DNA from: a virus
Virus record (IMG/VR): IMGVR_UViG_3300033148_008025
Coordinates: 57,455-121,454 of that record
Length of the DNA stretch: 64,000 bases
Reading direction: 5' to 3' (one strand)
Shown: one piece after another, positions 454-63,760 of the stretch
Layout: each line of letters opens with the position of its first letter
Position numbering within the stretch: the first letter of the stretch is position 1
Notes under the pieces: model-generated
What the model saw: the letters and a program-made list of their open reading frames with translations, nothing else
Database searches by the model: none
Told to the model about the DNA's origin: nothing
Program-made: the position numbers and the translations under genes

Positions 454-455
454 TA

Positions 456-2494: not shown

Positions 2495-2496
2495 AC

Positions 2497-36346: not shown

Positions 36347-36675
36347 TGGACGAAATAAGAAAACTGGCTGAGAGTTCACTGCAGGAGGCTGTGAGCATAG
36401 CTAGGCTCGCGGGGGGCGCCGGGATGAGGATTAAGCTTGGAGCTGCCCTACCCAAGCTCCCGAGTGCTGCGCAGCAGCTTAGGGCTACTGCGAGCTCCTC
36501 TTGGAGGATGGGAGCCTCGCCGCCAAAGCCGAAGTCTATGCGTCCAAACGGACGCATAGGAGATCCGGCTAGGACCAGGTCGCCAGCCAAGCCTCCAAGC
36601 AAGAAGGCATTTTACCGAGACATGGTTCTCGGAATGGACCCGAGTTATGGCAACCGTATGGCTGTCAAAGGCTAA
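36346..36675 (+). CDS. Small basic protein translationally coupled to the RNAP gene
   Basis: 109 aa; TAATG overlap; begins MDEIRKLA. Confidence 0.6.
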   Translation: MDEIRKLAESSLQEAVSIARLAGGAGMRIKLGAALPKLPSAAQQLRATASSSWRMGASPPKPKSMRPNGRIGDPARTRSPAKPPSKKAFYRDMVLGMDPSYGNRMAVKG

Positions 36676-41829: not shown

Positions 41830-42714
41830 GTGCGATACCCATACGAGCGATTCATTAGGTTTCTCGTATCCCGCAAGCTTGATCCAAGTGACACGCTGAA
41901 CGGGTACGGGCTTCCACACGTGGGTCCGATGTGGACAAGCGATTGCCGCCACGAACTTCGAAAAACAGCTCCATCTGCGATCGTCAACTACATTGATTCC
42001 AAGAACGATCATCTTACGTTTAAGAATGGTGTCCTGGAGTGGGCGGAAGACGAGGGCTTTAGGGAGCTCTGGGATGCCCAACCCGAATTCAGCGGAAAGA
42101 CTGATGCAAAGTTAGACACTGCGCATCTCATTTTCATGAACCCTCACTCAAGGGCTCTGACTGGGATGATGATTCTCTCCAAGGCCTCAGACGATGAAAT
42201 ATGTCTGATGGTCAAAGAGAAGCTCGGCCTCGAGCTAGACGAAGAGGGCTTAGGTATATACTGCGATATCTTCTGGGATGTAGACATCCTCGGCAGAGAG
42301 GGGTGGGAAGCTTTTCTTTCTGAGATAAAAACGAAGGAGGAGAGGCACTACCTCGCACTAGGACTCGGGGCACTGTCACTCGACGAATGTCGCAATACAG
42401 CAGGACTCGGGACGCATCTTGACCTCGACATGATGCTTCACGCTGTTTTGTCAGAGTCCTTCTTCAAGCTGAGAGCTGCTTACAACCACCCAAACCCTGA
42501 AGCTGCGAACATTGAGATGTGGCATAGCCATTGGCAGAGAGCGTGGGATAGAGCAGAGAAAAGACGGAGAGAAGAAGACGGGGAAAATCCAATTGCAAGT
42601 GGCGACTTCGAAGCCCTCTTTTCGATTCGAACAACAAAATCCGAACATGTGTCACTCACTGACCTCAAAGGACACATGTCGACAGGCGCAGAAATCGCAA
42701 AAGAGAAGGGTTGA
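41830..42714 (+). CDS. Hypothetical protein, terminase small subunit candidate
   Basis: 294 aa, helical, immediately upstream of and overlapping terL; identity positional only. Confidence 0.45.
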   Translation: MRYPYERFIRFLVSRKLDPSDTLNGYGLPHVGPMWTSDCRHELRKTAPSAIVNYIDSKNDHLTFKNGVLEWAEDEGFRELWDAQPEFSGKTDAKLDTAHLIFMNPHSRALTGMMILSKASDDEICLMVKEKLGLELDEEGLGIYCDIFWDVDILGREGWEAFLSEIKTKEERHYLALGLGALSLDECRNTAGLGTHLDLDMMLHAVLSESFFKLRAAYNHPNPEAANIEMWHSHWQRAWDRAEKRRREEDGENPIASGDFEALFSIRTTKSEHVSLTDLKGHMSTGAEIAKEKG

Positions 42715-44492
42715 TGGAACAAGTAGAAGAGAAAGAAGAAGCTCTTGATAGCTACGACTCGGATCCGTTTGACTTTACGGAGTTTCAGGAGCGACCAGCG
42801 ATGCGGAAACACATCGACTGGAAGCATGCGGGTGACTGGGCACCAACACTAAAATCATTCACAAAGAAAGGGCGTACAAAACCTTCCTTCGGTGGTCGTG
42901 TAAGTGATATCGCACAGGCGGTTCTTTACCATCTCGGGCGACCACTCCGCCTTGACAATCATGCATTCATGCTCCCAGTCTTCAACGACCAAGATCCGAG
43001 GCTGGTTCTTAAGTGTTCGCGACAGGTTGCGAAATCAACAACCATTTGCAATCTACAACTGATTGAATCGATCATCACTCCACACTGGAGAAGCCTCTAT
43101 GTCTCACCGTCTGCACTGCAGACGAGGCAATACTCCAACGAGAAACTTCGTCCTACAATCTACGACTCACCGTTTGTGAAGGGTGGTTTTGCTGGGAAAG
43201 GGGTCACTGACCAGGTTTTTGAGAAAACCTTACTCAACGGTTCATACATGTTCCTGCGATACGCATTCCTCACTGCAGCCCGAGCTCGAGGTATCCCTGC
43301 TAGCCGCGTGTTTTTTGATGAAGCCCAAGACCTCCTGAAAGACAATATCAAGGTTATCTCACAGTCGCTCTCGGCATCACGCCTTGCTGCAGGTGTTGAG
43401 GGGCGGGAGATGATTGCAGGAACACCCCTGACTTTCGCCAACACGCTAGAAGAGTATTGGCAGTGGTCGACCCAGAACGAGTGGCTAGTCCCTTGCGACT
43501 GCAAGGCACCTCGATATTGGAATATGATCGGCCCGACAAACATCGGAAAAAAAGGGCTGATCTGCTCAAGCAAAAACTGCGGAAAGCCACTCAATGCCGC
43601 AGCGGGGCAATGGGTTTCATTTCAGCCCGGCGAGCACTATGTTGGATACCACATCTCCCAACTCATGGTTCCGTGGAAACAGGAACCAGACGCATGGAGT
43701 GCTGAGATCGTACTTCCATTCGACAAGTGGCCAGAATCAAAGTTCAACAATGAAATTCTGGGGCTATCCTACGACAACGCATCATCCCCTGTTACGAGGA
43801 TGGACCTACAGGCAAATTGCTATCCGCAGCAAGAAATACCAAACAAGAACACAAGAAAGTTCGTCTGGCAGAAAGGCCCTGCACAGGCAGGGCTAAGGGT
43901 GTTTGCAGGTATTGACTGGGGAGAAGGTCGAGAAGAAGGCGCGGTTGAAGGTGGGGTCAAGAGGTTCGCGTCATGGACCGTGCTAACTCTGGGCGGATAT
44001 GTTGGCGACAAGTTTTGGCCATTCGCCATGAAGCGATACGTGGGCAAGGATGTTGATCCAGAGATAATCATCCCAGACGTTCTGCACCTATGCGGATACT
44101 GGAACGTCGAAGTTGTGGGGGCTGACTGGGGGCACGGCTGGGGAATGAATAGCCGGATCATGAAGGCAATCGGAAAGCCTCGGGTGATGCAATTCGCTTA
44201 TTCGTCCAATCTTGGTGAGAAAAAAAGATGGGACGCAAATGCCTACAAGTTCATCATCAACCGCAACTCAGCCCTTGTGAATGTCTTTTCGAGCATCAAG
44301 CAAGGGAAATACGTTTTCCCCGAATGGGAGGAATTTGAACCATTCGGAAAAGATATCCTGGCAGAGTATGTGGAGTACAATGAGCGAACTCGAACAATGA
44401 AGTACGACCATCCGATAGATCAGCCAGACGATGCCCTGCACAGTCTTGTGTATTGCAAACTTGCGGCTGACATCACTCTTGGAAAGTTCTAA
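42714..44492 (+). CDS. terL: Terminase large subunit
   Basis: Walker A-like LKCSRQVAKST, Walker B VFFDEAQD, AGTP motif, nuclease AGIDWG, ADWGHG, PDDALHS. Confidence 0.92.
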   Translation: MEQVEEKEEALDSYDSDPFDFTEFQERPAMRKHIDWKHAGDWAPTLKSFTKKGRTKPSFGGRVSDIAQAVLYHLGRPLRLDNHAFMLPVFNDQDPRLVLKCSRQVAKSTTICNLQLIESIITPHWRSLYVSPSALQTRQYSNEKLRPTIYDSPFVKGGFAGKGVTDQVFEKTLLNGSYMFLRYAFLTAARARGIPASRVFFDEAQDLLKDNIKVISQSLSASRLAAGVEGREMIAGTPLTFANTLEEYWQWSTQNEWLVPCDCKAPRYWNMIGPTNIGKKGLICSSKNCGKPLNAAAGQWVSFQPGEHYVGYHISQLMVPWKQEPDAWSAEIVLPFDKWPESKFNNEILGLSYDNASSPVTRMDLQANCYPQQEIPNKNTRKFVWQKGPAQAGLRVFAGIDWGEGREEGAVEGGVKRFASWTVLTLGGYVGDKFWPFAMKRYVGKDVDPEIIIPDVLHLCGYWNVEVVGADWGHGWGMNSRIMKAIGKPRVMQFAYSSNLGEKKRWDANAYKFIINRNSALVNVFSSIKQGKYVFPEWEEFEPFGKDILAEYVEYNERTRTMKYDHPIDQPDDALHSLVYCKLAADITLGKF

Positions 44493-49929: not shown

Positions 49930-50442
49930 TTGGCTCTTCGGGCTATAGCCGATCCAGTCACCAGGATCATTCAGCTATTGGATGCTCCTGTCGGTGGGCT
50001 GTCTGATATCAGTGTCCCTTACGACCTGTATAGTAGGCTCAAGGATGATTGGCACTCTACCCCAAATCTAAGAAAGCTTCACTTCTGCTTCAGCACGGAA
50101 GGTGGTACGACGGTAACTCCAGTCAAGAAGTCTGGAGCCTATTTCTTTCTGCGCAACGATCTGGGGTGGAGGCTTCGACCATACGATGCCAACCAAGAGT
50201 TAACGATCGACGGAATGCTTTACCCCTCGGACATTTCAATTCCGATGATCTTAACTCCTGCAGGCAGAACTATCATCATCTTCAACGAGCGCTCCAACCT
50301 TGCTCAGAGCGTGCAGGCTGAAACGGATTCGGCTGCAGTTGCAAACGCTGTCAGAGCTGAGCTTGCTCCAGAGCTCGCAGACATTGCAGTCACAGTCGAC
50401 CACGCCAGGGCTGCAAACGCTCAGACGAAAATAATTCCCTAG
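49930..50442 (+). CDS. Protein sharing the N-terminal domain of 47604-49448
   Basis: 170 aa, TTG start; DLYSRLKDDW...YFFLRNDLGWRLRP. Confidence 0.55.
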   Translation: MALRAIADPVTRIIQLLDAPVGGLSDISVPYDLYSRLKDDWHSTPNLRKLHFCFSTEGGTTVTPVKKSGAYFFLRNDLGWRLRPYDANQELTIDGMLYPSDISIPMILTPAGRTIIIFNERSNLAQSVQAETDSAAVANAVRAELAPELADIAVTVDHARAANAQTKIIP

Positions 50443-50849
50443 CGCTTATTGCTTTTCTCTTCGATTTTGTCGAACAGTGCTCTGGTGAGAGAGCCAGTTA
50501 GCGCACCCTGTGTTCCAAGGCCTGCAAGCTCAGACTTGGTTGTCAGCGGATCTTTCTTGGACAGGAGGCTGATAGATTTCGTCCCCTTCGGTCGGGCTAC
50601 ATTTTTGATGACCCTTGTCATCCCACGTCCGCTCAGCACTGCAGCGGGGATTGCCATGGCACCGAGAAGACTTGAAGCAAGGTAGTTCCTCTTCCTCTTT
50701 CGCCGTGCTTCTGGAATTTTGCGAATGATGCTGTCGGCACTATTCTCAGCCTTCATCTTGATTTTTGCAGACTCGAGAACGTCGTTAGACCCACTCGATG
50801 CACTCAGTTTTGTAAGCTCATCCGCGAAGCCTGACATCATTGGAGTCAT
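50439..50849 (-). CDS. Small basic protein with N-terminal GFADELTKLS tag and hydrophobic helices
   Basis: 136 aa; MTPMMSGFADELTKLSAS; YLASSLLGAMAIPAAVL helix. Confidence 0.7.
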   Translation of the reverse strand: MTPMMSGFADELTKLSASSGSNDVLESAKIKMKAENSADSIIRKIPEARRKRKRNYLASSLLGAMAIPAAVLSGRGMTRVIKNVARPKGTKSISLLSKKDPLTTKSELAGLGTQGALTGSLTRALFDKIEEKSNKR

Positions 50850-52190: not shown

Positions 52191-53144
52191 ATGAGTACAA
52201 ACCATTTTGCCTTCGTCACATCTGATTCAGCACCCGGACAAACGAAGGTGGCCGCTGATCGGCTGGAGCTCCTTGGACAAATTGCAGCAAAGCACTATCT
52301 CGAAGATCGGGTACCACTCAACACCTCCATCAAAAAGATGGCACAGGAAAACGATTTGAATCACAACCAGATTCAAAGGATCTGCGAGATGGCAAACATC
52401 TCAACACATAAGGGGCTTTGGGCCAAAACCGCACAAAAAGAGAGTGTCGCCTTCGACCTGGCCGATGCCAGAAACATTGCAACAGTTTCTCCAAGCCCAA
52501 GCAAGGACGAAGATGAGAGCGAGTGTGGGTGTTCCTCGGCATCATCTCCATCGTCCGTAGACTCAGATTACATGGCACCACCGAAAGGGATCCCACTTCC
52601 TGGCCCATCGATAATGTCAATGATGGGCGCAGATCCATCTAAGGTTCACAACGGACTGAGTTCCGAGCCTGAGTCGAAGAAAATCATCATCATTCTTCAA
52701 AAGAAAGCGAGTGAAAGAAAAACTCTTGCAGACTCAATCCTCTACAAAGGGATGGAACTAGAAACACTTGAGAAAAAAGCCTATCAAACTGTAAAGCAAA
52801 CAGTTCTCGGCGGATCATCTTTTTCACAAGTATTCAAGGCAGCAGTAGGAGCGGGACTTGGCAAGATTGCCAATGAGAAATTACCGGAATATCAGGACAG
52901 ACTTATAGAAGAAACACACGGCGAGACTCGTAATCGCCTTGTGAAGTGTGCGATCCACAAGGCGCCGGAAGATTTGATTAGCTCCAACCTGGGCAACATG
53001 GTGGTCATCAACGGAGCCCACCCAGTGATAGTTTCTCTGGATACGGTTCAGAGGAAAACCGGCGAAATCAAAAATGGAATCAGCAACCTTCTTCGCATCG
53101 ACGATGAAGTGAAGATTTACCAACAGCGTCTAAGGGAGCTGTAG
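52191..53144 (+). CDS. Putative internal head / head-assembly protein
   Basis: 317 aa; KVAA, KTAQ, KKAS, KIAN motifs; first gene of the head cluster. Confidence 0.65.
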   Translation: MSTNHFAFVTSDSAPGQTKVAADRLELLGQIAAKHYLEDRVPLNTSIKKMAQENDLNHNQIQRICEMANISTHKGLWAKTAQKESVAFDLADARNIATVSPSPSKDEDESECGCSSASSPSSVDSDYMAPPKGIPLPGPSIMSMMGADPSKVHNGLSSEPESKKIIIILQKKASERKTLADSILYKGMELETLEKKAYQTVKQTVLGGSSFSQVFKAAVGAGLGKIANEKLPEYQDRLIEETHGETRNRLVKCAIHKAPEDLISSNLGNMVVINGAHPVIVSLDTVQRKTGEIKNGISNLLRIDDEVKIYQQRLREL

Positions 53145-53497
53145 TGAATAACGTACTAAACGGATTCGCCTCTGAACTAACCAAGGTTGCCCTAGCCAAA
53201 GGGCTTGGAAGGGTTGGTAAGTTCATGATGAAACACCCTGTAGCTGGAATCATGGTTCCAATAATTGGAGCCACATCTATTGCAGCGGGAACGCAGGCGT
53301 ATAAAAGTGGGAAATCTGGGGGGCGAGGGCGCTATCTGAAAGCGTCACCTCGAGGGGCTAGCAAGTCTGCATACACCAACTACCACGGGCTTATGAAGCA
53401 CAGGGCTTCCAAAAAAGACATCAAAAAAATTACAGGGAAATATCGGGAAAGCGCATTTTCACGACGTGGCCCCTCTTCCAAATCTAAGAAAGCATAG
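53144..53497 (+). CDS. Tagged small basic protein with hydrophobic helix
   Basis: 117 aa; MNNVLNGFASELTKVA; PVAGIMVPIIGATSIAAG. Confidence 0.7.
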   Translation: MNNVLNGFASELTKVALAKGLGRVGKFMMKHPVAGIMVPIIGATSIAAGTQAYKSGKSGGRGRYLKASPRGASKSAYTNYHGLMKHRASKKDIKKITGKYRESAFSRRGPSSKSKKA

Positions 53498-53499
53498 TC

Positions 53500-54207
53500 A
53501 TGAATTCACTCCACCTTCTTGTCGAATGTCACCGCCGCGGATACCTATCAAAGGAAGCTGCAGACAGCGTTGCCGAAGTTCGCGAGCGACTGATCATGGG
53601 CGCCCTAAAGAAAGAGGCAAAGGAATTTGTCGAGGCGCTTTCCTCGCGCGAGTTTGACAAAGAAGCATCTTCTATTGGATCTTCTATTGGATCTAAAATC
53701 GTATCTAAATACAGGTCGGCCAAGAGCGGGATTGAAGGATTGGCAACCAGCGACGGACTCTGGGAAAGGTCTGTCCGAAACCTTGCACTTCTAACGGGAA
53801 TGGGAGCAGCTGTTGGGGCAGGTGGCGCTGGTGTAGATGCATTTCTGTCACATCGGAAGGATACCCAGACTAGGAAGAGGATTGAGAGGTCCTATCCTCA
53901 AATGTTCAAGCTTGAGCCAGATTTGAACGAACATGACAAGTCCACAATCAGTCGGAACTTTCAGGTTCTAGCAACATACGCTCCTTCCATTGCAGCAAAT
54001 CCTGTCGTTGCTGCAACATGGTCTCTCGAAAAAGCCATTCGTGGACGAATTGAGCCACTTGAAATCAAGAGCCTTGCTGAAACACAGACAGCGATCGACA
54101 GGGCATCAGAGCGTGAACACTTCATTGCTACGCCGGCAGCTAGGAACATCATGGGCATAGCGACATCGTCGCTCGGCAAGATTGAACCTCTCAAGGATGC
54201 AATCTAG
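53500..54207 (+). CDS. Putative ejection/membrane-helix head protein
   Basis: 235 aa; FDKEAS motif; LALLTGMGAAVGAGGAG helix. Confidence 0.65.
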   Translation: MNSLHLLVECHRRGYLSKEAADSVAEVRERLIMGALKKEAKEFVEALSSREFDKEASSIGSSIGSKIVSKYRSAKSGIEGLATSDGLWERSVRNLALLTGMGAAVGAGGAGVDAFLSHRKDTQTRKRIERSYPQMFKLEPDLNEHDKSTISRNFQVLATYAPSIAANPVVAATWSLEKAIRGRIEPLEIKSLAETQTAIDRASEREHFIATPAARNIMGIATSSLGKIEPLKDAI

Positions 54208-54216
54208 GAACGCACG

Positions 54217-55662
54217 GTGGCAAGAGACCCTCTTAGCTTCTTCGTAAATGAGAAGGTGGCGAGCCTGAGTGCGCCTGAGACGCCTGTTGATGAGTTTCAT
54301 CGTATCCCGGCTCGTCCCTCCGACCAGAGTATTGATCCCGGAGAACGTGCCCTAGCTGGCCTTGCCGCTGTAACAGGATCGCTCATTTCCAAGATTGTCC
54401 CATGGGCCACCGAGATTGCTGTCAGCAATCAATTCTCGAAAGGAGAGAAAGCTTTTCCGCGTCCTGGGGGGATTGGTCCCGTATCAACTATTGGTGAATT
54501 CCTAACCCAAGATTCTGCCCCACCCAAGTCGAGAATAATGGGCTTGTTCGATGTTACCGGACGATCACCCAGCAAGGAGGAATGGCATTCGACAGGAATG
54601 ACCAGCCAGCGAATCAATTTTGGACACAGGTTGAAGGAAATTGAGGACATCGCAGACTCCTTTATCGACAAACACAGGTTGAAAGAAAAAGGGGTGAAAC
54701 TACATTTTCGGCAAGGACCGATAAGTGGAACGGTTACAGGATCGTATTCTCCTTCCACCAAAAAAGTACACATTCCATACACCGGAAAAGAGGCAGTACT
54801 TCATGAGCTCGGGCATGCAGCCGACTACACAACGAGGATTGGAAAAATTCGCTCACACGTAGGGCCCGCCATCAAAAAGAGTGTTCTCGTTGCCTTGCCG
54901 ATCGCACTAGCCGCAGGTGACCAAGTTAAAGAAATAATCCCTGGAACAATAGATGATAGGGCCATCGAGTTCATGCAGGACAATGCTCCAGCAATCATGG
55001 GGGCGACGCTTGCTGCAACTGTTATTTATCCAGAAGCAAAAGCAACCATGCTTGCAGTAAGGCATGTTGCCGAGAAAGAAGGCCCAATCGCTGCTAGGGC
55101 TATGATGAAAAAACTCGGCCCAGCGTTGGGAAGCTATGTCATCGGGGCCATACCGGCAATCATAGGAATGTCACTTGCACGCAAATATATGCGTGAAGCC
55201 CGGGAAGAGAAGGCTGAGCTCATCGACGAAATTGAAAAAATTGGTTCAGTCGTAGATGTATTCGTCCATCACGGCAAGGACATCTCACACGTTGCTAAGG
55301 GCATCGCAAGAGGCACTGCTGAGCTCATGTCAAAACCTGGAACAATGAAAAACATCGCCAGGGCGGCCAAGGAAGTAGGTACTTCCCCGGAGTTTGTACA
55401 TGGTGCGATAGTGAGTGCTGTTCCCGCGGCCCTTGGTGCCCTCTATATGTACGGAACTCCTAGCGGTGATATTGCACGAAAGAGAATGCACAAAAGACAG
55501 ATCCAGAAGCTTCCGCACAGCATGGTTGGTAATCAGACGATGGCAACTGAGAGCTGGAGAGAAGAGCACCCGCTGCGATTTGCTGGAATTGTAGCTCTGG
55601 GCACAGCCATGGCTGGGGGAATCATGACGAAATTCATAAGAGACTTGGCTCCGATCCTATGA
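54217..55662 (+). CDS. Zincin-like metallopeptidase domain protein with multiple hydrophobic helices
   Basis: 481 aa; GSYSPSTKKVHI...VLHELGHAAD (HExxH); EKVAS and DEIEKIGS motifs. Confidence 0.7.
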   Translation: MARDPLSFFVNEKVASLSAPETPVDEFHRIPARPSDQSIDPGERALAGLAAVTGSLISKIVPWATEIAVSNQFSKGEKAFPRPGGIGPVSTIGEFLTQDSAPPKSRIMGLFDVTGRSPSKEEWHSTGMTSQRINFGHRLKEIEDIADSFIDKHRLKEKGVKLHFRQGPISGTVTGSYSPSTKKVHIPYTGKEAVLHELGHAADYTTRIGKIRSHVGPAIKKSVLVALPIALAAGDQVKEIIPGTIDDRAIEFMQDNAPAIMGATLAATVIYPEAKATMLAVRHVAEKEGPIAARAMMKKLGPALGSYVIGAIPAIIGMSLARKYMREAREEKAELIDEIEKIGSVVDVFVHHGKDISHVAKGIARGTAELMSKPGTMKNIARAAKEVGTSPEFVHGAIVSAVPAALGALYMYGTPSGDIARKRMHKRQIQKLPHSMVGNQTMATESWREEHPLRFAGIVALGTAMAGGIMTKFIRDLAPIL

Positions 55663-56477
55663 CCAAAGTTCGCGGCATAGCCCTAGTTGGGGGATGGACG
55701 CCAGAGGAGAAGAAGGTAATTCCCGAAATCCTGGGTCCCATGCCAGACGCCTGGCTCAAGGACAACCCGTTCATTTCTCGCATCATACGAAAACCCACTC
55801 TTCTCAATGCGCCCAAAACGGCGCCAGGCCATTCAAAGTATGAACCGCAGAACAGGTCAATTGTCGTATTCGACAAGGGCGTGTATCATGACGGAAAGAT
55901 AGACCTGGAGCAGTTTCGGCGCTCTGTCTGCCACGAGCTGGCACATGCAATCCTTGAACTACACCCAAAACTCCTGTCAAAGTGGACTATCGCCACAAAG
56001 AACGACGACTACGTTGATGACTACGCAAAGACCAGCCCAGAAGAAGATTTCGCCGACACCTTTTCTGAATTCTTCATTGATCCAAAAAAAACACGTAGTG
56101 TTGTCCCAAGGAAGGCAAACTTCGTGCAAAAGCTTCTATCCCTGTCTAGGGGTGGAGAGGAAAAAATAGCCATGTTCAATATCGCATCATTCGCCGACGA
56201 GCTCACAAAGACCGCCATCTCCGGATCTGCCCTGAAGGACATGCTGTCGAAAGCTGTTCGTTCTCCCGCAACAAAGGGCGTAGGCCTCGCAGGAGCAGGA
56301 GCAGGAGGCGGTGCCATCGTCGGTCATGAGATGGGCGAAGGAACGGGACTCAAGCAGGGGCGCAAGAATGTTCGGACGGTTGCCGTGCAAGCACGCAAGA
56401 TTGGACGCAGGGAAGGTGTCATGATGTATCATCAAGCTCTGCAGAAGTCACTGCGCTCTCGAGGGCAACAACGATAG
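55659..56477 (+). CDS. Zincin metallopeptidase fused to a tagged Gly-rich helix module
   Basis: 272 aa; CHELAHAI...DDYAKTSPEEDFADTF; then EKIA-MFNIASFADELTKTA. Confidence 0.75.
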   Translation: MTKVRGIALVGGWTPEEKKVIPEILGPMPDAWLKDNPFISRIIRKPTLLNAPKTAPGHSKYEPQNRSIVVFDKGVYHDGKIDLEQFRRSVCHELAHAILELHPKLLSKWTIATKNDDYVDDYAKTSPEEDFADTFSEFFIDPKKTRSVVPRKANFVQKLLSLSRGGEEKIAMFNIASFADELTKTAISGSALKDMLSKAVRSPATKGVGLAGAGAGGGAIVGHEMGEGTGLKQGRKNVRTVAVQARKIGRREGVMMYHQALQKSLRSRGQQR

Positions 56478-56490
56478 ACGGGAAACTCCC

Positions 56491-57342
56491 ATGGTGAAAA
56501 AAAACGCATCAGGCCTCTTCTTCGAAAAGAGAGCTCAGTCAAGTTCTGGGAAATTCTTTAGCCAGATGCCAGGGCGTGAAACTGGTGAATTTTTCGGCAA
56601 ACAGGCAACGACCGCGTTGCCACAGCCATCACCCACAACACCGTCAAAGCCACCGGTTGACAAGATCAACATCGGAGCAACAGGTGGTCCTACTGGCGGC
56701 CAAGGATACCGCGGAGAGGGCATGAGTGGAGGGATGTATGGGTGTGGAACTGGAGAAAAGACAGCCTCTAGAACCCCGAATGAATGGTCTCACGAAACAG
56801 ATCTTCCTAACGGCTTCCATCGTCCCGCAAAAGATCAACCAGAAGACCTCGAGGCTGGCGGCGAAAGATTCTTCGATTCAGAAGTGGAAGGTCCAAGCTA
56901 TCGATCATCAGATGGAATGCGCCATGGGGTCAAAGAAGGAGGAAGCATGCACATGCGTCCTGGCTCTGGACATCAGATAGGCAAGCATGCATCGCAAGCC
57001 CCTCGGTTCCTGGGGACGTCATTCGCCAAAGAAGCTGGTTATGGGTCAGAATTCAAGTCAAGCCTGGGCAAAGCCAAGGATGAATTCGTGTCCAGCCTGG
57101 GCAAAGCAAAAGAAGAAGCCGGCGAAGAAGCATCTGGCGCACTGCACTCTATAACCAAGAGTCCTCTTGCGGCAGCTGCAATTACCGGACTAGCCGGTGC
57201 GGCTTTGCTCCGCGGAGGCAGGAGGGGTTACAAAACCCTCAAGGGTGCAATCAAAAAAACTCCTGCAAAAAAAGCCCCGGAGTCGCTAAAAGACAAAGCA
57301 AGAAGTAAAGTCCAGGAACTCGTTGGCAAAATCACTCAATAA
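56491..57342 (+). CDS. Disordered putative internal head protein
   Basis: 283 aa; KRAQ, KQAT, KTAS, KHAS, KEAG motifs; AAAAITGLAGAALL helix. Confidence 0.65.
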   Translation: MVKKNASGLFFEKRAQSSSGKFFSQMPGRETGEFFGKQATTALPQPSPTTPSKPPVDKINIGATGGPTGGQGYRGEGMSGGMYGCGTGEKTASRTPNEWSHETDLPNGFHRPAKDQPEDLEAGGERFFDSEVEGPSYRSSDGMRHGVKEGGSMHMRPGSGHQIGKHASQAPRFLGTSFAKEAGYGSEFKSSLGKAKDEFVSSLGKAKEEAGEEASGALHSITKSPLAAAAITGLAGAALLRGGRRGYKTLKGAIKKTPAKKAPESLKDKARSKVQELVGKITQ

Positions 57343-57356
57343 CCAGGAACACAAAA

Positions 57357-57725
57357 ATGGAAAATCTTACTGACGTATACCAACAAATCGCAGCTGCAGA
57401 TGCTGGGAAACTCGAGAAGCAAGCTGCGGTGATCAAAGTAGCCGAAGAGGAAGATGCTGCCGGCCGCATCATGGCTCGTGGCTTTGCCGACGAACTGACC
57501 AAAATTGCCGGCGACGACGCAGGATACGGACAAGATCCGTCGATGGCGAAAACAAAGCTTCCTACCCCCCCGAAGGTAGGCGGAACGGTCAAAGCTCCAG
57601 ACTTCAAAGTCGGAGGAGGAGCCACCGGTCCAGGCCCAGGTTTGGCTGGTCGACCAATTAAAGCTCCGCCTGTGAAAGCTGAGCCAGAAAAGGTCAAGCT
57701 GAAGCGTCCAGGCGGTCGCCAGTAA
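57357..57725 (+). CDS. Scaffold-like paralogue 1
   Basis: 122 aa; LTDVYQQIA...LEKQAA...AGRIMARGFADELTKIAG. Confidence 0.7.
   Translation: MENLTDVYQQIAAADAGKLEKQAAVIKVAEEEDAAGRIMARGFADELTKIAGDDAGYGQDPSMAKTKLPTPPKVGGTVKAPDFKVGGGATGPGPGLAGRPIKAPPVKAEPEKVKLKRPGGRQ
57457..57485 (+). repeat. 29-nt exact direct repeat, copy 1 (copy 2 at 60602-60630)
   Basis: CTGCCGGCCGCATCATGGCTCGTGGCTTT. Confidence 0.9.
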
Positions 57726-57734
57726 ACACCTGTC

Positions 57735-58418
57735 ATGAACAACCTCCTCCAAGGCTTCGCTGACGAGTTGACCAAGGTCGGCTTCAAACTCAAAGCGAAC
57801 AAATCTACGGGCCCAGCAGGAAATGCTGGCGCCCCAAGTCCCATGGGATATGGCCGCGTTGCTGCGCCAAAACCATTGGGCTCAGGAGGAGGTCCAACCA
57901 GTGCTGGGCTAACTGGCATAGGGCGGCAGCAAATGAATTTTTCTGCAAAACAGAAAAAGCCCAAATATGTCTCCGCTGGAACCCAGAAATTTGCTCCAGC
58001 AAAACCACCCGAAGTTCAGAAAAATAAGAAGGGTGGGGGGCGGAGAAAGCGGGGGGCAAAAAAAGACCTCGGACCAGCGTGGGAAACCGGAGCACAGCGA
58101 CTGAATAGGAGAGTAGGCGAACAGCGAAGTGCCACGAAGGCAAAGGGGAGGACCGATTCTGAGTGGTTTCAAAAGCAAACACCCAAAGCCGGCGGCAAGC
58201 CAACAGTAAAGTCAACGTCGGACCAAGCCCGATATAGTAAGTTGAAGGCAAAGGGCAATACCGGCAGGTGGGCGGCTGCCCATGGAAAGCCAATACGGTC
58301 CACTGGAACAACCCTCAGTCCATCCGCAAAAGCTCGACAGGCTCGACTAAGCCAATCTGCCAACAAGGCAAGGGCTATCGTCACGAAGCCGAACCTAAAA
58401 GGACTCATGAGACAGTAG
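57735..58418 (+). CDS. Tagged, highly basic disordered protein (possible DNA-binding internal protein)
   Basis: 227 aa; MNNLLQGFADELTKVG then Lys/Arg/Gly/Pro-rich. Confidence 0.7.
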   Translation: MNNLLQGFADELTKVGFKLKANKSTGPAGNAGAPSPMGYGRVAAPKPLGSGGGPTSAGLTGIGRQQMNFSAKQKKPKYVSAGTQKFAPAKPPEVQKNKKGGGRRKRGAKKDLGPAWETGAQRLNRRVGEQRSATKAKGRTDSEWFQKQTPKAGGKPTVKSTSDQARYSKLKAKGNTGRWAAAHGKPIRSTGTTLSPSAKARQARLSQSANKARAIVTKPNLKGLMRQ

Positions 58419-60236
58419 ATGTACAAGCTTCTAACATTCTCCGGATACGACAATCGAACCGGACCTCACATCTTTCCGATTGAGGCAGATGTCGATAAAA
58501 GCATTGGGCATATCAAAATGGCCCGAGAGCTTCCTGCGTCAATCGAGCAGTACATTCGAAATTCAAAACCCGTAAAAGGGAAGACACAGCTACTCATCGA
58601 TGCGATGGGGGCAGGCGAATTTTACGGATCAAACGTGAATGGAGACTTCTTCCCAGAAGAGGCTTTGCGTCACGAAGGTCCAGACTACGGATACAGAACA
58701 TTCATGATGTATGCGTATCCGTTTAAGCATCACGTCAACAAGGATCCTGCTCGAGCCTACGGTGACAAAGTCGTTCTTTCGTCATACGACCCGAAGATGC
58801 ATCGAGTTCTTCTTATCGTTCGTGTCGACGACGCAAAGTGCCAAGACATTCTTGGAGATCTGGACGACGGAACCTACTGGGACGTCAGCATGGGATGCCG
58901 AGTCCCATGGGACGAGTGCTCAATCTGTCACAACCGAGCAAAAAACCGAGCGGAGTACTGCACACACCTTCGCTATCAGATGAACAAGATCCTACAAGAC
59001 GGGAAAAGAGTTTTTGCATACAACCGTCTTCCAAAATTCTTCGATATCAGTTTTGTCACAATCGGCGCAGAGAAGGCATCTCACATTCTGAAAAAGGTCG
59101 CACACACAGGCCGAGCGGAAGAACTTGTCTTAAGCTCCGACGCTGGAGAGCACTATTATTCAAAGCTGGCAGACGTAGAGAAGGCTGCTGAGCAAAGCAA
59201 GCGAGCGGAAATCGAAAAAGAAGTCCCTTCCCAGCCAGCGGCGAACATCCAACCAGCAACACCGGCTGACAAGGCAAAGGTGGAAGGTTTTCTCGGCGCT
59301 GCTGGCGCACTGAAGTCCTGCGAACGTCCGATCCCGAATCAGACTCTAGATCGGATGGCACAACACCCGATGAGGGATATCTTCACAACGCTTGCAACGC
59401 TTGGAGTCGACCTGCGACCCAATGAATTCCAACGAATCGTTCTCATGAAGCAGGGTGCCGCTAAGCTGGCCAGCGCACTTGAACAACACAGGCTTGTTTT
59501 TGATGAAACGAAACCAGCGACATCTATCCCCAAATGGGCAATGGATTTCAAAAAAATAAATCATGGCGCTATCAATGAAAAGGTAGCGATGATCATCCAG
59601 CCATGGCTCAAAGAGCGGTCCTGCTATCCAGACATTCTCCAAAAAAGAATCGGTCGAATGGAGAAGCAAGCAGAGCTTGATTTCAAGTACGACAGCGATA
59701 GCCAGTGGCATCCGATGACCGATGACCAAAAGCGTGAAGCATCTGGAATGCACGGGTTAGTGCCCGCAAGCGCAGCTTTAGCTGCAGGCTTCATGGTTTT
59801 CAGAAAGATTTTTCCTGGGCTACAGACTACTGGCCCAGCGCCAATCCGCGCCATAGCAAAACACCCATGGCTCCTTCCCATGCTGATTGGGGCCGGCGTT
59901 GGGGCATCTGTTGGGATGCAAACAATGAACGCTCCCATGCCTCTAACAAAAGAGGGAGGTGTTGCTAGACTTGACGCTAAAAAAGTAGGGGCCTACCATG
60001 GTGCCAATGGCGCAAGTGAAAACACATCAAGTCCACTCCATCATGGGATGATCACACTTGCCTATGTCTACTCTAATACCACCCAGAACAAGCAACGCGG
60101 ACAATACGATCAGCTGATCACTCAACGACCTGAGCTTGCAAAACTAAGCAAAGTTGCAAACCATCAAACTCGCCACTCATCGCAAGATGTAAAAATTGCT
60201 GATTCAATTCGGCGAACAGAAAGCAAAAGGAAATAA
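58419..60236 (+). CDS. Prohead (head maturation) serine protease, HK97/assemblin-like fold, with C-terminal extension
   Basis: 605 aa; GSNVNGDFF, FKHHVNKD (His candidate), DVSMGC (Ser candidate), CSIC...YCTH; located in the scaffold/capsid cluster. Confidence 0.7.
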   Translation: MYKLLTFSGYDNRTGPHIFPIEADVDKSIGHIKMARELPASIEQYIRNSKPVKGKTQLLIDAMGAGEFYGSNVNGDFFPEEALRHEGPDYGYRTFMMYAYPFKHHVNKDPARAYGDKVVLSSYDPKMHRVLLIVRVDDAKCQDILGDLDDGTYWDVSMGCRVPWDECSICHNRAKNRAEYCTHLRYQMNKILQDGKRVFAYNRLPKFFDISFVTIGAEKASHILKKVAHTGRAEELVLSSDAGEHYYSKLADVEKAAEQSKRAEIEKEVPSQPAANIQPATPADKAKVEGFLGAAGALKSCERPIPNQTLDRMAQHPMRDIFTTLATLGVDLRPNEFQRIVLMKQGAAKLASALEQHRLVFDETKPATSIPKWAMDFKKINHGAINEKVAMIIQPWLKERSCYPDILQKRIGRMEKQAELDFKYDSDSQWHPMTDDQKREASGMHGLVPASAALAAGFMVFRKIFPGLQTTGPAPIRAIAKHPWLLPMLIGAGVGASVGMQTMNAPMPLTKEGGVARLDAKKVGAYHGANGASENTSSPLHHGMITLAYVYSNTTQNKQRGQYDQLITQRPELAKLSKVANHQTRHSSQDVKIADSIRRTESKRK

Positions 60237-60237
60237 C

Positions 60238-60957
60238 ATGCCCTCTCTCGACGACCTCATGAGCAAATTTGCATCAGACGAATCAGCTACAGAAAATTTC
60301 GCAGTCCCCGGCGACGCCGTTGTCCCGGATTTTAACCCCGTCGACGACGGACAACTCAAGACAGCCTCTGAAGGAAACCAGGAAATGCGCTCACTCACCG
60401 ACATCTATATGGCAATCGCTGACAACGACCTCGAGAAGCAAGCTGCTGCTGCTGCTCATATCCCCGAAGAAAACTACGACGATGTAGACTTCGCAAAGAT
60501 CGCAGGTGATCTTGCTTCCGCCGAAGCAGCCGATCTTGCAATCCAGGATGAGCATAGCGGCGATGGTGCGGACATGGTCAAAGTTGCAGCAGAGTACGAC
60601 TCTGCCGGCCGCATCATGGCTCGTGGCTTTTATGATGAGTTCATGAAGCTTGCTGGTGCAATGGATACTGACGTATCCTCAAATCAGATGACGGAATCAC
60701 CATCCGCTTCATCTACCCCAGCCTTCGGTGACCGAGGACTGCCAACTGTTCCTACGAACTTTGCTGGCAACGAAGCCCACGATGGTCAAATCGAAACAGC
60801 AGGCCAAGCTGGTAAGCAGGTTTACAGCGACGTGCTCAAGCCAAGCAAAAGCATCTCTGCTGGCCAGGGAACCGGGGACGACCCCGAAGCTGCAGCAGTT
60901 AGCCTTGGTGGCGGTTCTCCCGCAGGATTCGCAACTGTGAAAGACCTTACGGCCTAG
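60238..60957 (+). CDS. Scaffold-like paralogue 2
   Basis: 239 aa acidic; AAAAGGA RBS; SLTDIYMAIA...LEKQAAA...AGRIMARGFYDEFMKLAG. Confidence 0.75.
   Translation: MPSLDDLMSKFASDESATENFAVPGDAVVPDFNPVDDGQLKTASEGNQEMRSLTDIYMAIADNDLEKQAAAAAHIPEENYDDVDFAKIAGDLASAEAADLAIQDEHSGDGADMVKVAAEYDSAGRIMARGFYDEFMKLAGAMDTDVSSNQMTESPSASSTPAFGDRGLPTVPTNFAGNEAHDGQIETAGQAGKQVYSDVLKPSKSISAGQGTGDDPEAAAVSLGGGSPAGFATVKDLTA
60602..60630 (+). repeat. 29-nt exact direct repeat, copy 2
   Basis: Identical to 57457-57485. Confidence 0.9.
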
Positions 60958-61004
60958 GCTGTAAGGTCTCTCATTCATCGCAAACCCCCAAAAGGAGAAC
61001 TGAC

Positions 61005-61424
61005 ATGGATTCACTGAAATCTGTATACAACGCCATCACAGAGCAAGACTTCGAGAAAGCTGCTCAGGCTGAGGTTGTTGAGCATTACGGCCAATCATTC
61101 GCAGAGGCCGACCCCGAAATGCTCAAGCAAGCTGCTGACTACGACTACATCGGACGCATTGTTGCCCACAATGTTTTCTCCGATCTCATCAAAGAAGCAA
61201 TGGATGAGGCTATGCCTGATGCTTCCGAAGACGAGAAGAAGAAGGAAGCCGATAAAGTCATCGCAAAAGCAAAGGGCGAAGCCCCTGCTGAAGATGAAAA
61301 AAAGGACAAGAAGGACGAAAAAGAGGAGGAGTCTGAGAAGACTGCTGCTTATCGTCAAGCCGTCCTTGAGCGAATGTACTCAGATCCTGGGTATGTTCAG
61401 GCGCTCATCGCCAAGCATTACTAG
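61005..61424 (+). CDS. Scaffold-like paralogue 3
   Basis: 139 aa; AAAGGAG RBS; SLKSVYNAIT...FEKAA...KQAADYDYIGRIVAHNVFSDLIKEA. Confidence 0.75.
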   Translation: MDSLKSVYNAITEQDFEKAAQAEVVEHYGQSFAEADPEMLKQAADYDYIGRIVAHNVFSDLIKEAMDEAMPDASEDEKKKEADKVIAKAKGEAPAEDEKKDKKDEKEEESEKTAAYRQAVLERMYSDPGYVQALIAKHY

Positions 61425-61447
61425 AAGTCACTTCTCACCTCGAGGTT

Positions 61448-61888
61448 ATGATGGGTTATTCTCTTGATGAGCTTCTTGATGCCACCGGCATTAACGAGCT
61501 CGACGGATCACAACTGCGAAAAACCGCTGCTTCCAGTGAGCAGTGTGATTTTTCAAAACTTGCCGAACGCTGCCGGGAGGCAGCTGATGCAACTCCTTCT
61601 GAAGTTGAGCAATCAGACCACAGGGAGCTTGTTGAAAAAACTGCAGCCATTGCCGTCATCGAGAAAACCCTCTCAGAGATTGGCTCTATTGTGGGTGCTC
61701 CACTCCAGAAGACTGCTGCCGCCAGAAAAACAGGTTTTGGCCGGGCAGCGTTCATCAAATCGGCGCTTGAAGCTGGGCACGACCCGGAGAACATTGCAAA
61801 GTTCCTAGAGAAGAAAAAAAAGGACGAGGAAGAGGAGGAAGAAGAAAAGGCTTCTAAGAAGAAGACTTCCTCCTCGATCGTTTCCTAG
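61448..61888 (+). CDS. Scaffold/internal head protein
   Basis: 146 aa; KTAA x3, KLAE; charged C-terminus. Confidence 0.7.
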   Translation: MMGYSLDELLDATGINELDGSQLRKTAASSEQCDFSKLAERCREAADATPSEVEQSDHRELVEKTAAIAVIEKTLSEIGSIVGAPLQKTAAARKTGFGRAAFIKSALEAGHDPENIAKFLEKKKKDEEEEEEEKASKKKTSSSIVS

Positions 61889-61966
61889 CTTTTCTGGGAA
61901 AGTTTTATTTTTTTTGACGCCAAGTTGACGTTATGCCGGCCAAGCGTACGATGGGACAAAGACAAC

Positions 61967-62284
61967 ATGTCTAACAAAACCACAAAAAGTGCAAGCCAAC
62001 ACGGTGAGCTTTTAAAGGAAGCCGCTGCTGCACTCGATGTTGCGCAAAAACGTGACGATGCCGTCAAGCTCGCATTCGAGATGGTCGAACGCGGAAAAAT
62101 CCCAACATTCCAAGACCACAGTCAGTTCATGGATAAAGTTGCAGAACTGATGTCCAAAGACCTGAGAGTGGTTGAAGAAGCCCTTGAAATGGATTCCTCC
62201 ATGGCCGATTTTGGCAAGGTTGCGTCCGAAGGTGGGACTCCCACCGATGCCCATTCGACCTTCTTTCACAATTTGGCCGACTAA
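61967..62284 (+). CDS. Small scaffold/internal head protein
   Basis: 105 aa from ATG 61967; KSAS, KEAA, KVAE, KVAS. Confidence 0.7.
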   Translation: MSNKTTKSASQHGELLKEAAAALDVAQKRDDAVKLAFEMVERGKIPTFQDHSQFMDKVAELMSKDLRVVEEALEMDSSMADFGKVASEGGTPTDAHSTFFHNLAD

Positions 62285-62306
62285 CCGTTCTTGAAGGAGA
62301 ACAAAT

Positions 62307-62819
62307 ATGACATTCCCAGTACCCAAAGATGTTCGCGGAACCCGCAATTTCGAAATTATTCTCGGAACAGACGAAATGCTCCGCCAGTCCAAGGGCCTCT
62401 CCGATGAGGCTGCAGACGTTGACCAAGGTGAGTGGATGAAACCATTTGCCAGTGATGGCACCAAAGTCGCAAAAATCGTTGTTGCAGACGACATTGATGC
62501 TCCAGCCCTTGGCGCAAAAGCTTCGTGGACCGCATATCGCCAAAACGACCTAAGTAATGGACAAACCGATGCCCTTGCAACAAAGTCTTGCGATGTCCTA
62601 TCTGGTAACTACCAGGCAAAGACAAAGCTCTACAATACTGGCTCAGGCGTCCTGGACCCAGGCAATTTGCTTGTAGCAGTATTTGACGCAACCCTCGACG
62701 GCGGACACCTCGACGCTGTCAACCCAGCCACCGCAACCGTTCGCCAGCTTCAAGCCGTAGTTGGACGCATCATCGATGTTGCCAATGGTCAACTCCACTA
62801 CGAGGCCCCTGGACTCTAG
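62307..62819 (+). CDS. Head decoration / capsid cement protein
   Basis: 170 aa directly before the MCP; AAGGAG RBS; size, position and beta-rich composition typical of lambda gpD-like decoration genes. Confidence 0.6.
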   Translation: MTFPVPKDVRGTRNFEIILGTDEMLRQSKGLSDEAADVDQGEWMKPFASDGTKVAKIVVADDIDAPALGAKASWTAYRQNDLSNGQTDALATKSCDVLSGNYQAKTKLYNTGSGVLDPGNLLVAVFDATLDGGHLDAVNPATATVRQLQAVVGRIIDVANGQLHYEAPGL

Positions 62820-62866
62820 CCTCTAGCTAGAATTCACCCAGCCAAGCCCTTCACAGGAGAAAAGAC

Positions 62867-63760
62867 ATGGAACAAATCGACGCAGGTACCTTCAACAATC
62901 TCTTCATCACAAAGCTCGACACGGCCGATGGCCTCGAGAAAGCTGCCCAAGCCGGCGGTGCTTTCGTTCGCGAGCGTTTGCGAGAAGTCTCATTTGCTCG
63001 CAGCATCGTGCCCCCCGAGTATCTCACCAAGGCCGACTGCCAGCGCTCTGTCAATCATGACACGCTGGTCAAAATCGTGGACATCGAGCCGCAGTCCAGT
63101 GCTGCTGCTGTCAACTTCCGCGGAAAAGCCTACGAGCGATACATCGAGGGTGATCGCTACGAGATCCCATTCTTCAAGATTGAATCAGAGAAGTTCAAGA
63201 AGAATGAGGCTGAGCTCTTGGCCTACGACTTCCCCGTCACCAAGGTGATTGAGGAGAACTCGGTCAAGGACATCCAGAAGATCGAGGACGGAAAGTTCAT
63301 CGAGTTCACGGACGCAGTCATCGCTGCCAACGGCAAAGACATTGCCCCTGCTGCTGCAGGTCCAGCAACGTCTGAGAATCTTGTGAGGCTATTCAAGGCT
63401 CTTGATACTGACGAACTTGCCGTCGGTACCATCTTGATGCACAAGTCCGACTGGGACGACTTCATGACCCAGGACGGTGCCGTCATCGGTTCACCACTGG
63501 CTTCGGAAATCCTGGTCAACGGCTACAAGTACAACACCATTCTTGGTCACAAACTTGTCGTCACCATCAAGTCGTCCATTGTTCCCCCAGGAACGATGTA
63601 TGTCTTCACGGACCCCAAGTATCTCGGAAACTTCTACATCCTCAACGATACGAAGTTCTACATCGAGAAGCGCGGCGACATGGTCAGCTGGCAGACTTGG
63701 GAGTACATCGGAATGGGATACGGAAACCTCCGTGCCTGCGCCAAGATGACTCTTACCTAG
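62867..63760 (+). CDS. Major capsid protein (HK97 fold)
   Basis: 297 aa; AGGAG RBS; strong C-ending codon bias; RERLREVSFARSIVPP, KDIQKIEDGKFI, TILGHKLVVT...VPPGTMYV patterns; follows protease/scaffold/decoration genes. Confidence 0.85.
   Translation: MEQIDAGTFNNLFITKLDTADGLEKAAQAGGAFVRERLREVSFARSIVPPEYLTKADCQRSVNHDTLVKIVDIEPQSSAAAVNFRGKAYERYIEGDRYEIPFFKIESEKFKKNEAELLAYDFPVTKVIEENSVKDIQKIEDGKFIEFTDAVIAANGKDIAPAAAGPATSENLVRLFKALDTDELAVGTILMHKSDWDDFMTQDGAVIGSPLASEILVNGYKYNTILGHKLVVTIKSSIVPPGTMYVFTDPKYLGNFYILNDTKFYIEKRGDMVSWQTWEYIGMGYGNLRACAKMTLT

Follow-up and report, generated by a model that had tools for sequence, protein, structure and literature searches.

A Lys/Ala motif in the head proteins of an uncultured Arash-related phage, a probable signal of its prohead protease

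Introduction

The stretch of DNA analysed here, referred to as the window, comprises 64,000 nucleotides and is the final 64 kb (positions 57,455 to 121,454) of the 121,454-base IMG/VR virus record IMGVR_UViG_3300033148_008025, the completeness of which is estimated at 67%. Its source is an uncultured phage with a genome of about 180 kb. The subject of this work is a short motif, [L/M/F]-x-K-x-A-(S/A/G/E), carried by the proteins of the phage's head block. The excess of the motif in this block is real, strongly non-random and clade-wide. Coupled with a leader found at the start of otherwise unrelated proteins, the motif probably marks the sites at which a serine prohead protease encoded by the phage itself recognises and cuts its substrates.

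The locus and its relatives

The head block spans 52191-63760, and its last gene encodes a major capsid protein (MCP) of the HK97 fold. The prohead protease gene lies 2.6 kb upstream of the MCP gene, with four scaffold-like genes and one decoration-like gene between them. Proteins are named below by the start coordinate of their genes. The main landmarks of the window are:

8679-10742: baseplate wedge protein
25661-27703: weak portal candidate (phrog_16240 hint)
42711-44492: large terminase, TerL (phrog_675, E 4e-47)
58419-60236, plus strand: prohead (capsid maturation) protease, 605 amino acids (aa), with a catalytic domain at about residues 36-214 and a long C-terminal extension
62867-63760, plus strand: MCP, HK97 fold, 297 aa

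The MCP is matched by phrog_2522 (E 1e-17), by NF042927 (E 2e-16) and by phage G gp27 (PDB 6wkk, E 8e-12). A megablast comparison of the head block with cultured phages gave no match at the DNA level, and most head-block and motif-rich proteins stayed unnamed in searches of PHROG, Pfam and NCBIfam. By protein, the nearest cultured phages are Salmonella phage Arash (OQ632216) and the Vibrio phages D69, D181 and D148; Bacillus phage G is farther away. The MCP and the protease are 32% and 34% identical, respectively, to those of Arash, and across Arash and the D69/D181/D148 group the identities range from 31 to 32% for the MCP and from 34 to 43% for the protease. Arash, D69 and phage G agree with the window in gene order around the protease and the MCP. 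From IMG/VR, 35 related loci were fetched, of which eight are close (MCP 88-93% identical) and the others distant (MCP 42-47%), including two short partial MCP matches of 57-61% over N-terminal segments. The genomes of the distant relatives measure 183-210 kb.

Over-representation of the motif

The original prediction, made from the letters of the window, held that K-x-A-[SAG] motifs occur several times in nearly every head protein and form the cleavage code of a prohead protease. The first part was overstated, as at least one strict K-x-A-[SAG] site is present in 11 of 15 head proteins, and by no means all of them have several. Protein 60238 (open reading frame from 60196) has six, within the five to six claimed for it, and 56491 has four. 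Three each are found in 61448 and 61925/61967, one fewer than claimed in either case. Two sites occur in each of 52191, 53500, 57357 and 61005 and a single one in both 54217 and the protease, while 53144, 55659, 57735, the decoration-like protein 62307 and the MCP have none.

The excess survives correction for composition, for which the original prediction had called. When whole proteins were shuffled, 26 K.A[SAG] sites in the head block were set against 10.6 expected (z 5.1); when shuffling was confined to blocks of 20 aa, the expectation was 10.5 (z 5.1), and the maximum over 1000 shuffles was 22. The form [EDML]K.A[SAG] occurs 11 times, with 2.4 expected (z 5.6), and [LMF].K.A occurs 33 times, with 4.6 expected (z 13.7). 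The tail and baseplate block (456-20466) has no excess of K.A[SAG] (7 vs 4.4, z 1.3), in agreement with the sparseness that had been noted by eye for tail and baseplate proteins, and neither do the upstream non-structural genes (11 vs 9.9). Thus the motif is over-represented in head-module proteins and not in tail or non-structural proteins. Three outlying clusters were also borne out: 22105, 24485 and 39634 carry seven, seven and four strict sites, and jointly 18 K.A[SAG] vs 4.7 expected (z 6.7). The strongest excess per protein is found in 22105, 52191, 60196/60238, 61448, 56491, 24485 and 39634.

An unbiased scan for gapped tripeptides, in which roughly 80,000 patterns were tested, ranked L.K.A first in the head block (18 vs 2.4, p 1e-10) and F.K.A second (10 vs 1.1). 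Both are missing among the top patterns for the remainder of the genome, where unrelated patterns are found. Because these two patterns head the scan, the motif is better written as [L/M/F]-x-K-x-A-(S/A/G/E). The enrichment of K-x-A-[SAG] therefore stands, but the motif is longer than proposed, with a hydrophobic residue two positions ahead of Lys.

Residue preferences and conservation

Residue preferences were derived from 228 pooled [LMF].K.A sites of eleven genomes, with positions counted from Lys. When X is varied in [LMF].X.A[SAGE], the enrichment is 8.1-fold for Lys, whereas Arg shows none; for X in [LMF].K.X[SAGE], it is 5.9-fold for Ala, and Ser and Gly do not rise above background. 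Glu is favoured directly before Lys. At position +1, between Lys and Ala, Thr, Val and Ile are favoured, and Gly and Asp are almost absent. At position +3, after Ala, the favoured residues are Ser, Ala, Gly and Glu, with Val, Ile, Leu, Lys, Arg and Pro nearly lacking. Ser follows Ala in 25% of the sites, 3.5-fold above background, which makes Ala-Ser the commonest pair. Pro is excluded from positions -3 to +4. In ortholog alignments, the conservation of motif Lys is 0.66 vs 0.33 for other Lys (p 1e-4), and that of motif Ala is 0.64 vs 0.48 for other Ala. Judged from the sequences, these preferences fit a peptide that would be bound as an extended strand, recognised from one face and followed by a small P1' residue.

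The motif across the clade

The same signal was recovered from relatives whose head proteins can barely be aligned with those of the window. When the 10 kb upstream of the MCP were scanned without bias in 12 distant relatives, a pattern derived from the motif (L.K.A, M.K.A, K.AS, EK.A or KTA) ranked first in ten and second in an eleventh. The motif is plainer still in Arash and D69, where several proteins encoded upstream of the MCP have six to nine copies each. In phage G, the flanks of the gp19 protease and the beginning of gp20 carry the motif, and the MCP does not. In Rhodococcus phage E3, the protease of which is a distant tblastn match, the head proteins are not enriched in the motif; the code is therefore not shared by the wider group of these proteases as a whole.

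The prohead protease

The 605-aa protein encoded at 58419-60236, the sole one with a protease signal among the recognisable genes, is matched by phrog_18299, head maturation protease (E 1.5e-6), and tblastn leads from it to annotated prohead proteases of actinophages and to phage G gp19. The serine protease was found in 29 of the related loci. The sites and candidate catalytic residues within it are:

58509-58526, plus strand: N-flank site H-I-K33-M-A35-R (residues 31-36)
58728-58733, plus strand: H104-H105, candidate catalytic His, invariant in 22 orthologs
58881-58895, plus strand: D-V-S157-M-G, candidate catalytic Ser; V156, S157, M158 and G159 invariant in 22 orthologs
59088-59105, plus strand: C-flank site L-K-K226-V-A228-H (residues 224-229)

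An AlphaFold model was built from the alignment of these 22 sequences, which are 32-78% identical. The core (residues 36-214) has a predicted local distance difference test score (pLDDT) of 75-94, and the flanks, residues 1-35 and 215-241, score below 50. The best PDB match of the core is T4 gp21 (5jbl_A; Z 10.1, root-mean-square deviation 3.0 Å over 128 aligned residues), followed by the varicella-zoster virus (VZV) protease at Z 6.8; the herpesvirus proteases (VZV, herpes simplex virus, cytomegalovirus) range from Z 5 to 7. Foldseek probabilities for the core are 0.84-0.97. The protease is a divergent lineage of the T4 gp21/HK97/assemblin fold, and by sequence it belongs to neither S77 nor S78. 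The Ser of V-S-M-G, singled out in the original prediction, is thus kept in all 22 aligned orthologs and is the candidate nucleophile as far as the sequences can tell.

Both motif sites lie in the flanks. The N-flank site stands at the end of the low-scoring segment 1-35, and the C-flank site lies in the linker 215-241, just past the final strand of the catalytic domain. At about residues 25-37, a comparable place, distant orthologs carry F-E-K-T-A-A, L-E-K-T-A-A, L-V-K-T-A-S or I-K-K-V-A-G, although the MAFFT alignment puts K-M-A of the window a few columns away; the corresponding sites are L-T-K-Q-A-A in Arash and L-E-K-S-A-A in D69. In most orthologs, the C-flank column reads hydrophobic-x-K-[VIL]-A-[GSHED]; the proteases of Arash and D69 and gp19 of phage G have it too. 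The flanks of 21 orthologs together contain 38 sites vs 4.8 expected, the cores 2 vs 4.7.

The only other protease-like gene of the head block encodes a 272-aa HExxH protein:

55659-56477: HExxH protein with H-E-L-A-H; weak Peptidase_Mx and lethal-factor-domain hints, E about 0.06

No homolog of it was found in five distant relatives (91-100% complete) or in the cultured phages; it is confined to close relatives. It was rejected as the responsible enzyme on this ground, which leaves the serine protease as the candidate. The HExxH protein itself may be a packaged metallopeptidase.

Two further features of the protease were observed. A Cys cluster, C-x8-C-x2-C-x11-C-x-H, follows the candidate catalytic Ser (window 58896-58976, residues about 160-186). 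It is present in many orthologs and in Arash, D69 and phage G, with Ser or Thr in its place in several distant relatives, and may represent a small insertion that binds metal and is lacking in T4 gp21. In IMGVR_UViG_3300037851_000538 (66-6161), the protease ortholog is an open reading frame of 2031 aa with an insertion that starts L-P-A-G-S-R-I-L-M-G-D-G right behind V-S-M-G-C and looks like an active-site intein.

Scaffold-like proteins and other motif carriers

In the scaffold-like proteins between the protease and the MCP, sites recur every 20-45 residues. These proteins and the other main carriers are:

22105-23256, plus strand: 383-aa protein, the most motif-enriched of the genome, with 10 sites vs 0.7 expected (p 4e-9)
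24485-25639, plus strand: 384-aa protein rich in Lys and Ala, encoded directly upstream of the portal candidate, with 7 sites vs 1.6 expected
39634-41826, plus strand: 730-aa protein upstream of the large terminase, with 6 sites vs 1.2 expected, mainly in the C-terminal third
52191-54207, plus strand: head-block proteins 52191 (6 sites), 53144 (leader) and 53500 (3 sites)
56491-57725, plus strand: Gly-rich protein 56491 (5 sites) and protein 57357 (3 sites and an internal leader-like box)
60238-60957, plus strand: scaffold-like acidic protein, 239 aa from an ATG with an AAGGAA ribosome site
61005-61424, 61448-61888 and 61925/61967-62284, plus strand: three small acidic scaffold-like proteins with 3, 5 and 3 hydrophobic-x-K-x-A sites

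In 60238-60957, the six K-x-A-[SAG] motifs start at K10, 41, 67, 87, 115 and 137, i.e. 20-31 residues apart (Poisson p 7e-5). The sites of the 61925 family are kept in four orthologs, and orthologs of 56491 retain K-x-A-[SGA] while the flanks diverge.

Proteins 57357-57725, 60238-60957 and 61005-61424 have a paralogous module in common, which consists of K-[QV]-A-A, a short spacer, [AI]-G-R-I-[MV]-A-[RH]-[GN]-[FV] and a leader-like box. This arrangement suggests a duplicated scaffold or targeting element. The 2076-aa Lys-rich protein at 30116-36346 has neither a motif excess nor a leader; the 109-aa protein encoded next to it (36346-36675) starts M-D-E-I-R-K-L-A-E, with a minimal motif at the extreme N-terminus.

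N-terminal leaders

At least eight unrelated proteins of the genome, four of them in the window, start with M-x(3-6)-[GS]-F-x-[DS]-E-L-x-[KR]-x-[ASG]. The leader box also occurs internally in three or four proteins. Within the window, the leaders and internal boxes are:

10751-10780, plus strand: degenerate leader S-F-V-D-E-L-I-R-V-G, N-terminal in a 100-aa protein of the baseplate block and followed by L-A-K-H-A-S
50802-50831, minus strand: leader G-F-A-D-E-L-T-K-L-S, N-terminal in a 136-aa protein (50439-50849)
53162-53191, plus strand: leader G-F-A-S-E-L-T-K-V-A, N-terminal in a 117-aa protein
56187-56216, plus strand: internal leader-like box S-F-A-D-E-L-T-K-T-A in the HExxH protein
57480-57509, plus strand: internal box G-F-A-D-E-L-T-K-I-A, with AGRIMAR directly before it
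57753-57782, plus strand: leader G-F-A-D-E-L-T-K-V-G, N-terminal in a 227-aa basic protein
60625-60654, plus strand: internal box G-F-Y-D-E-F-M-K-L-A, with AGRIMAR directly before it, paralogous to the box at 57480

Some leaders have Ser or Gly at the Ala position (K-V-S, K-V-G, K-L-S). Upstream of the window, at window coordinates -23740 to -19648 and -9578 to -9201, lie the genes of four further leader-bearing proteins of 437, 699, 226 and 125 aa. The 699-aa protein has seven strict K-x-A-[SAG] motifs and the 226-aa protein four, and these leader-bearers are candidates for packaged cargo encoded elsewhere than in the head block.

The major capsid protein

Near its N-terminus, the MCP carries one candidate site:

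62933-62950, plus strand: L23-E-K25-A-A27-Q

The original prediction had pointed to L-E-K-A-A at residues 23-27, which is indeed present, but the residue that follows is Gln and not Ser, Ala or Gly. K25 and A27 are invariant, and E24 nearly so, in 26 MCPs; the entire N-terminus is conserved in these proteins. At residues 25-29, Arash has L-V-K-E-A-G and D69 has L-T-K-E-A-G. No depletion of the motif was seen within the mature MCP, where one conserved I-D-K-I-A column in the distant MCPs inflates the count. Cleavage of the MCP at residues 23-27 is uncertain.

Interpretation and alternative explanations

The enrichment, conservation and positions of the sites, the fold of the protease and its invariant His and Ser are the observations from which cleavage, the bond cut and the set of substrates are inferred here. 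A prohead-protease code is the reading best supported by them: enrichment is limited to head proteins, the motif is conserved in the clade, and it is found at both protease flanks, in the leaders and at the N-terminus of the MCP. The details of the code as first proposed had to be corrected as described above.

Should processing follow the course known from T4 and phiKZ-type phages, the procapsid would be assembled with the protease, scaffold-like proteins and leader-tagged cargo built in. The protease, with His105 and Ser157 as the candidate catalytic pair, would then liberate its own catalytic domain through cuts in both flanks. The scaffold-like proteins would be chopped into pieces of 20-45 residues able to exit the shell, the GFxDELxK-x-A leaders would be taken off the packaged proteins, and the MCP would possibly be trimmed by about 25-27 residues. 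The substrate is probably bound as an extended strand, one face of which presents the hydrophobic residue together with Lys and Ala.

Several points limit this interpretation or weigh against it. Some occurrences of the motif are paralogous repeats and hence not independent. The extended motif was defined after inspection of the data, a weakness mitigated by the unbiased scans of the window and the relatives. The protease has no Pfam match (E<=0.1), no NCBIfam match and no PDB profile match, T4 gp21 included, so its link to proteases is drawn from a weak PHROG match, tblastn and the fold. A conserved, buried-looking I-D-K-I-A lies inside the distant MCPs, from which it follows that the pentapeptide by itself is insufficient for cutting. 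The published particle proteome of Arash, in which many leader-bearing proteins are listed, consists of coverage values only, and the sample has many non-virion enzymes (PMC10585845). At the MCP site, distant relatives carry Lys or Arg in place of the hydrophobic residue, and the site falls at the start of a predicted helix (residues 20-41, pLDDT about 80 in an AlphaFold model that is poor overall, with pLDDT 53, and was used for the N-terminal helices only). The homologous segment of the phage G MCP is without the motif, and the deposited chain 6wkk comprises 280 of 282 residues. The loss of 26-27 aa that had been predicted for the MCP is favoured by the invariance of K25 and A27 but opposed by the hydrophobic residue missing in most distant relatives, by the helix and by phage G.

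The position of the cut can be considered separately. If cleavage occurs, the bond between Ala and the next small residue is the somewhat favoured one. The strict Ala with a small residue after it resembles the Ala-Ser bond cut by assemblin and the P1' Ser preference of SPN3US gp245. The constrained span would then be mostly non-prime, and the conserved part of the leader stops at the small residue. Ala at P1, as originally proposed, is therefore plausible and slightly preferred by the small-residue rule at +3, but a cut after hydrophobic-x-Lys fits the same data. With such a cut, which we consider the less likely one for the same protease, the hydrophobic residue would occupy P3 and Lys P1, with x-Ala-small on the prime side. 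The HK97 capsid protein is cut in just this manner, after K103 of F-N-K103-S104, and its delta domain has six hydrophobic-x-Lys triplets, including E-L-T-K-S-G. T4 gp21, the best fold match, cuts after the Glu of L/I-x-E, so a hydrophobic P3 with a charged P1 is the classical layout of the family. Lys is also the strictest position, for which Arg never substitutes, and the leaders accept Ser or Gly for Ala. However, +1 would become P1', and its preference for bulky beta-branched residues and Glu, with Gly nearly excluded, would be atypical of P1' within the superfamily. Ala, which is strict, and the small residue at +3 would move to P2' and P3', where sharp discrimination by proteases is rare, and the constrained Pro-free span from -3 to +4 is centred closer to Ala. 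Gene ends that stop exactly at the motif, a possible clue to the scissile bond, gave no signal.

The motif might also be no cleavage signal but a short linear docking motif, by which the scaffold-like proteins, the cargo and the protease would attach to a pocket of the capsid interior, the portal or the protease for co-assembly and targeting to the capsid, although this appears improbable. Multivalent repeats in scaffolds and a leader common to cargo proteins would suit a docking signal as well, and strand-like residue preferences fit any interaction by beta-augmentation. The scaffold-like protein gp223 of Arash is reported at 100% coverage in the particle proteome (PMC10585845), but non-virion enzymes are plainly present in that sample as contaminants, and little can be concluded from full coverage. 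One would not expect a docking motif to occur in the N-terminus of the MCP itself, or to coincide in every lineage, phage G included, with the two disordered segments on either side of the catalytic domain of the protease, and the same layout in T4 and phiKZ-type phages is known to reflect cleavage (PMC10052503). That the motif has no function at all and merely reflects Lys/Ala-rich composition, helical periodicity or recent internal duplication is effectively refuted by the scans of the relatives, the rules of residue substitution and the block shuffles. The head proteins are indeed rich in Lys and Ala, and some sites lie in obvious internal repeats (AGRIMARGF in the window, the repeats of Arash gp223). 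Yet the excess withstands whole-protein and 20-aa block shuffling (z 5-14), other Lys/Ala-rich proteins and the remaining genome lack it, and relatives with head proteins of little sequence similarity to those of the window yielded it independently. Moreover, Lys is not replaceable by Arg, and a spacing of i, i+2, i+4 is no helical repeat.

Significance

The principle of head processing is itself textbook knowledge. If the interpretation as a cleavage signal is confirmed, the processed and packaged proteome would become predictable for widespread, almost unstudied phages of about 180-210 kb, including cultured Salmonella and Vibrio phages. A Lys/Ala class would then stand as a third specificity beside Glu (T4, phiKZ) and Ala-Ser (herpesviruses). 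The signals of T4 and P1 were used earlier to load foreign proteins into capsids, and the leader described here might, if confirmed, serve as a portable one for the same purpose.

Literature searches found no Lys- or Ala-specific prohead protease, no Lys-x-Ala code and no paper on processing in Arash, and cleavage motifs are not mentioned in the megaphage paper on phage G or in a review of jumbo phages. In the Arash study, the protease was not annotated and processing was not analysed; its supplement is a gene table without peptides (PMC10585845). It is possible, at a little less than even confidence, that the Arash-like clade, and in part phage G, has a previously undescribed Lys/Ala protease specificity, which together with the GFxDELxK-x-A leader forms a general cargo-loading system. 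With such a system, the enzymes that enter with the DNA would be readable from the sequence; they would include the leader-tagged papain-like and ADP-ribosyltransferase-like proteins upstream of the window, small partners of the single-chain RNA polymerase and sigma factor, and an HExxH peptidase.

Comparison with known systems

Arash and D69 share with the window the gene order, the motif throughout the head cluster, the site at MCP residues 25-29 and those in both protease flanks. Their leader, G[LF].E.L.DG[LM].K.A, differs from the GFxDELxK-x-A of the window.

Among herpesviruses, assemblin (MEROPS S21) cuts between Ala and Ser in (V/L)-x-A-S. It resembles the window protease in its fold class and in the Ala-Ser pair. 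The strict Ala, with Ser behind it in 25% of the sites and beta-branched and basic residues excluded there, would suit the analogy drawn in the original prediction if Ala is P1. The analogy does not extend to P3, which is Val or Leu in assemblin and would be Lys here if Ala is P1, with the hydrophobic residue at P5. The fold similarity is below that to T4 gp21, and the viruses and substrates differ.

The HK97 protease gp4 (MEROPS S78) has the same His-then-Ser order and S-x-G signature (His65; G-M-S114-V-G). Mature HK97 gp5 begins at Ser104, and a hydrophobic-x-Lys triplet (F-N-K103) thus precedes its known cut; E-L-T-K is found both in the delta domain and in the leaders of the window. Unlike the window motif, the HK97 site has no Ala at +2, and the window protease has no Pfam S78 match. 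HK97 has a delta domain as a fused scaffold, whereas the window has separate scaffold-like proteins and cargo leaders. In HK97 (NC_002167, 4028-4450 and 3348-4025), the delta domain has six hydrophobic-x-Lys triplets vs 3.0 expected and the protease ends in N-L-G-K, possibly a sign that HK97-type proteases follow a hydrophobic-x-Lys rule more generally.

With the phiKZ/SPN3US type, the window shares the processing of many head proteins, whose propeptides hold multiple sites, and self-cleavage of the protease, all of these predictions here. A virion-packaged RNA polymerase in the same phage type is a further likeness, and, should Ala be P1 in the window, so is a small residue behind the cut, commonly Ser. 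The differences are the P1 Glu of the phiKZ/SPN3US type, an MCP and most other head proteins that are unrelated, and the window motif, which is longer and includes Lys.

T4 gp21 (MEROPS S77) cuts (L/I)-x-E, and a 10-residue capsid-targeting sequence with a gp21 site at its end is carried by IPI-III and Alt. As in the window, one short motif is found on the scaffold, the protease itself, the N-terminus of the MCP and the leader ends of unrelated packaged proteins, and a hydrophobic residue stands two positions ahead of a charged one. The charged residue in T4 is Glu, in contrast to the Lys of the window, with its strict Ala two positions on. The leaders differ as well, MKTYQEFIAE in T4 and GFxDELxK-x-A here. 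No sequence similarity is detectable between gp21 and the window protease, which also has a C-terminal extension of about 390 residues and the Cys cluster past its candidate catalytic Ser. In the published comparisons, SPN3US gp245 recognises A/S/G-x-E with a preference for Ser at P1', and the propeptides of both T4 and SPN3US contain several copies of the motif along their length (PMC10052503). Since the conserved residues here are Lys and Ala and no P1 Glu is found, the system appears to work in the manner of T4 without using the same code. It most likely represents a known principle, T4-like head processing with a targeting leader, combined with a new Lys/Ala specificity.

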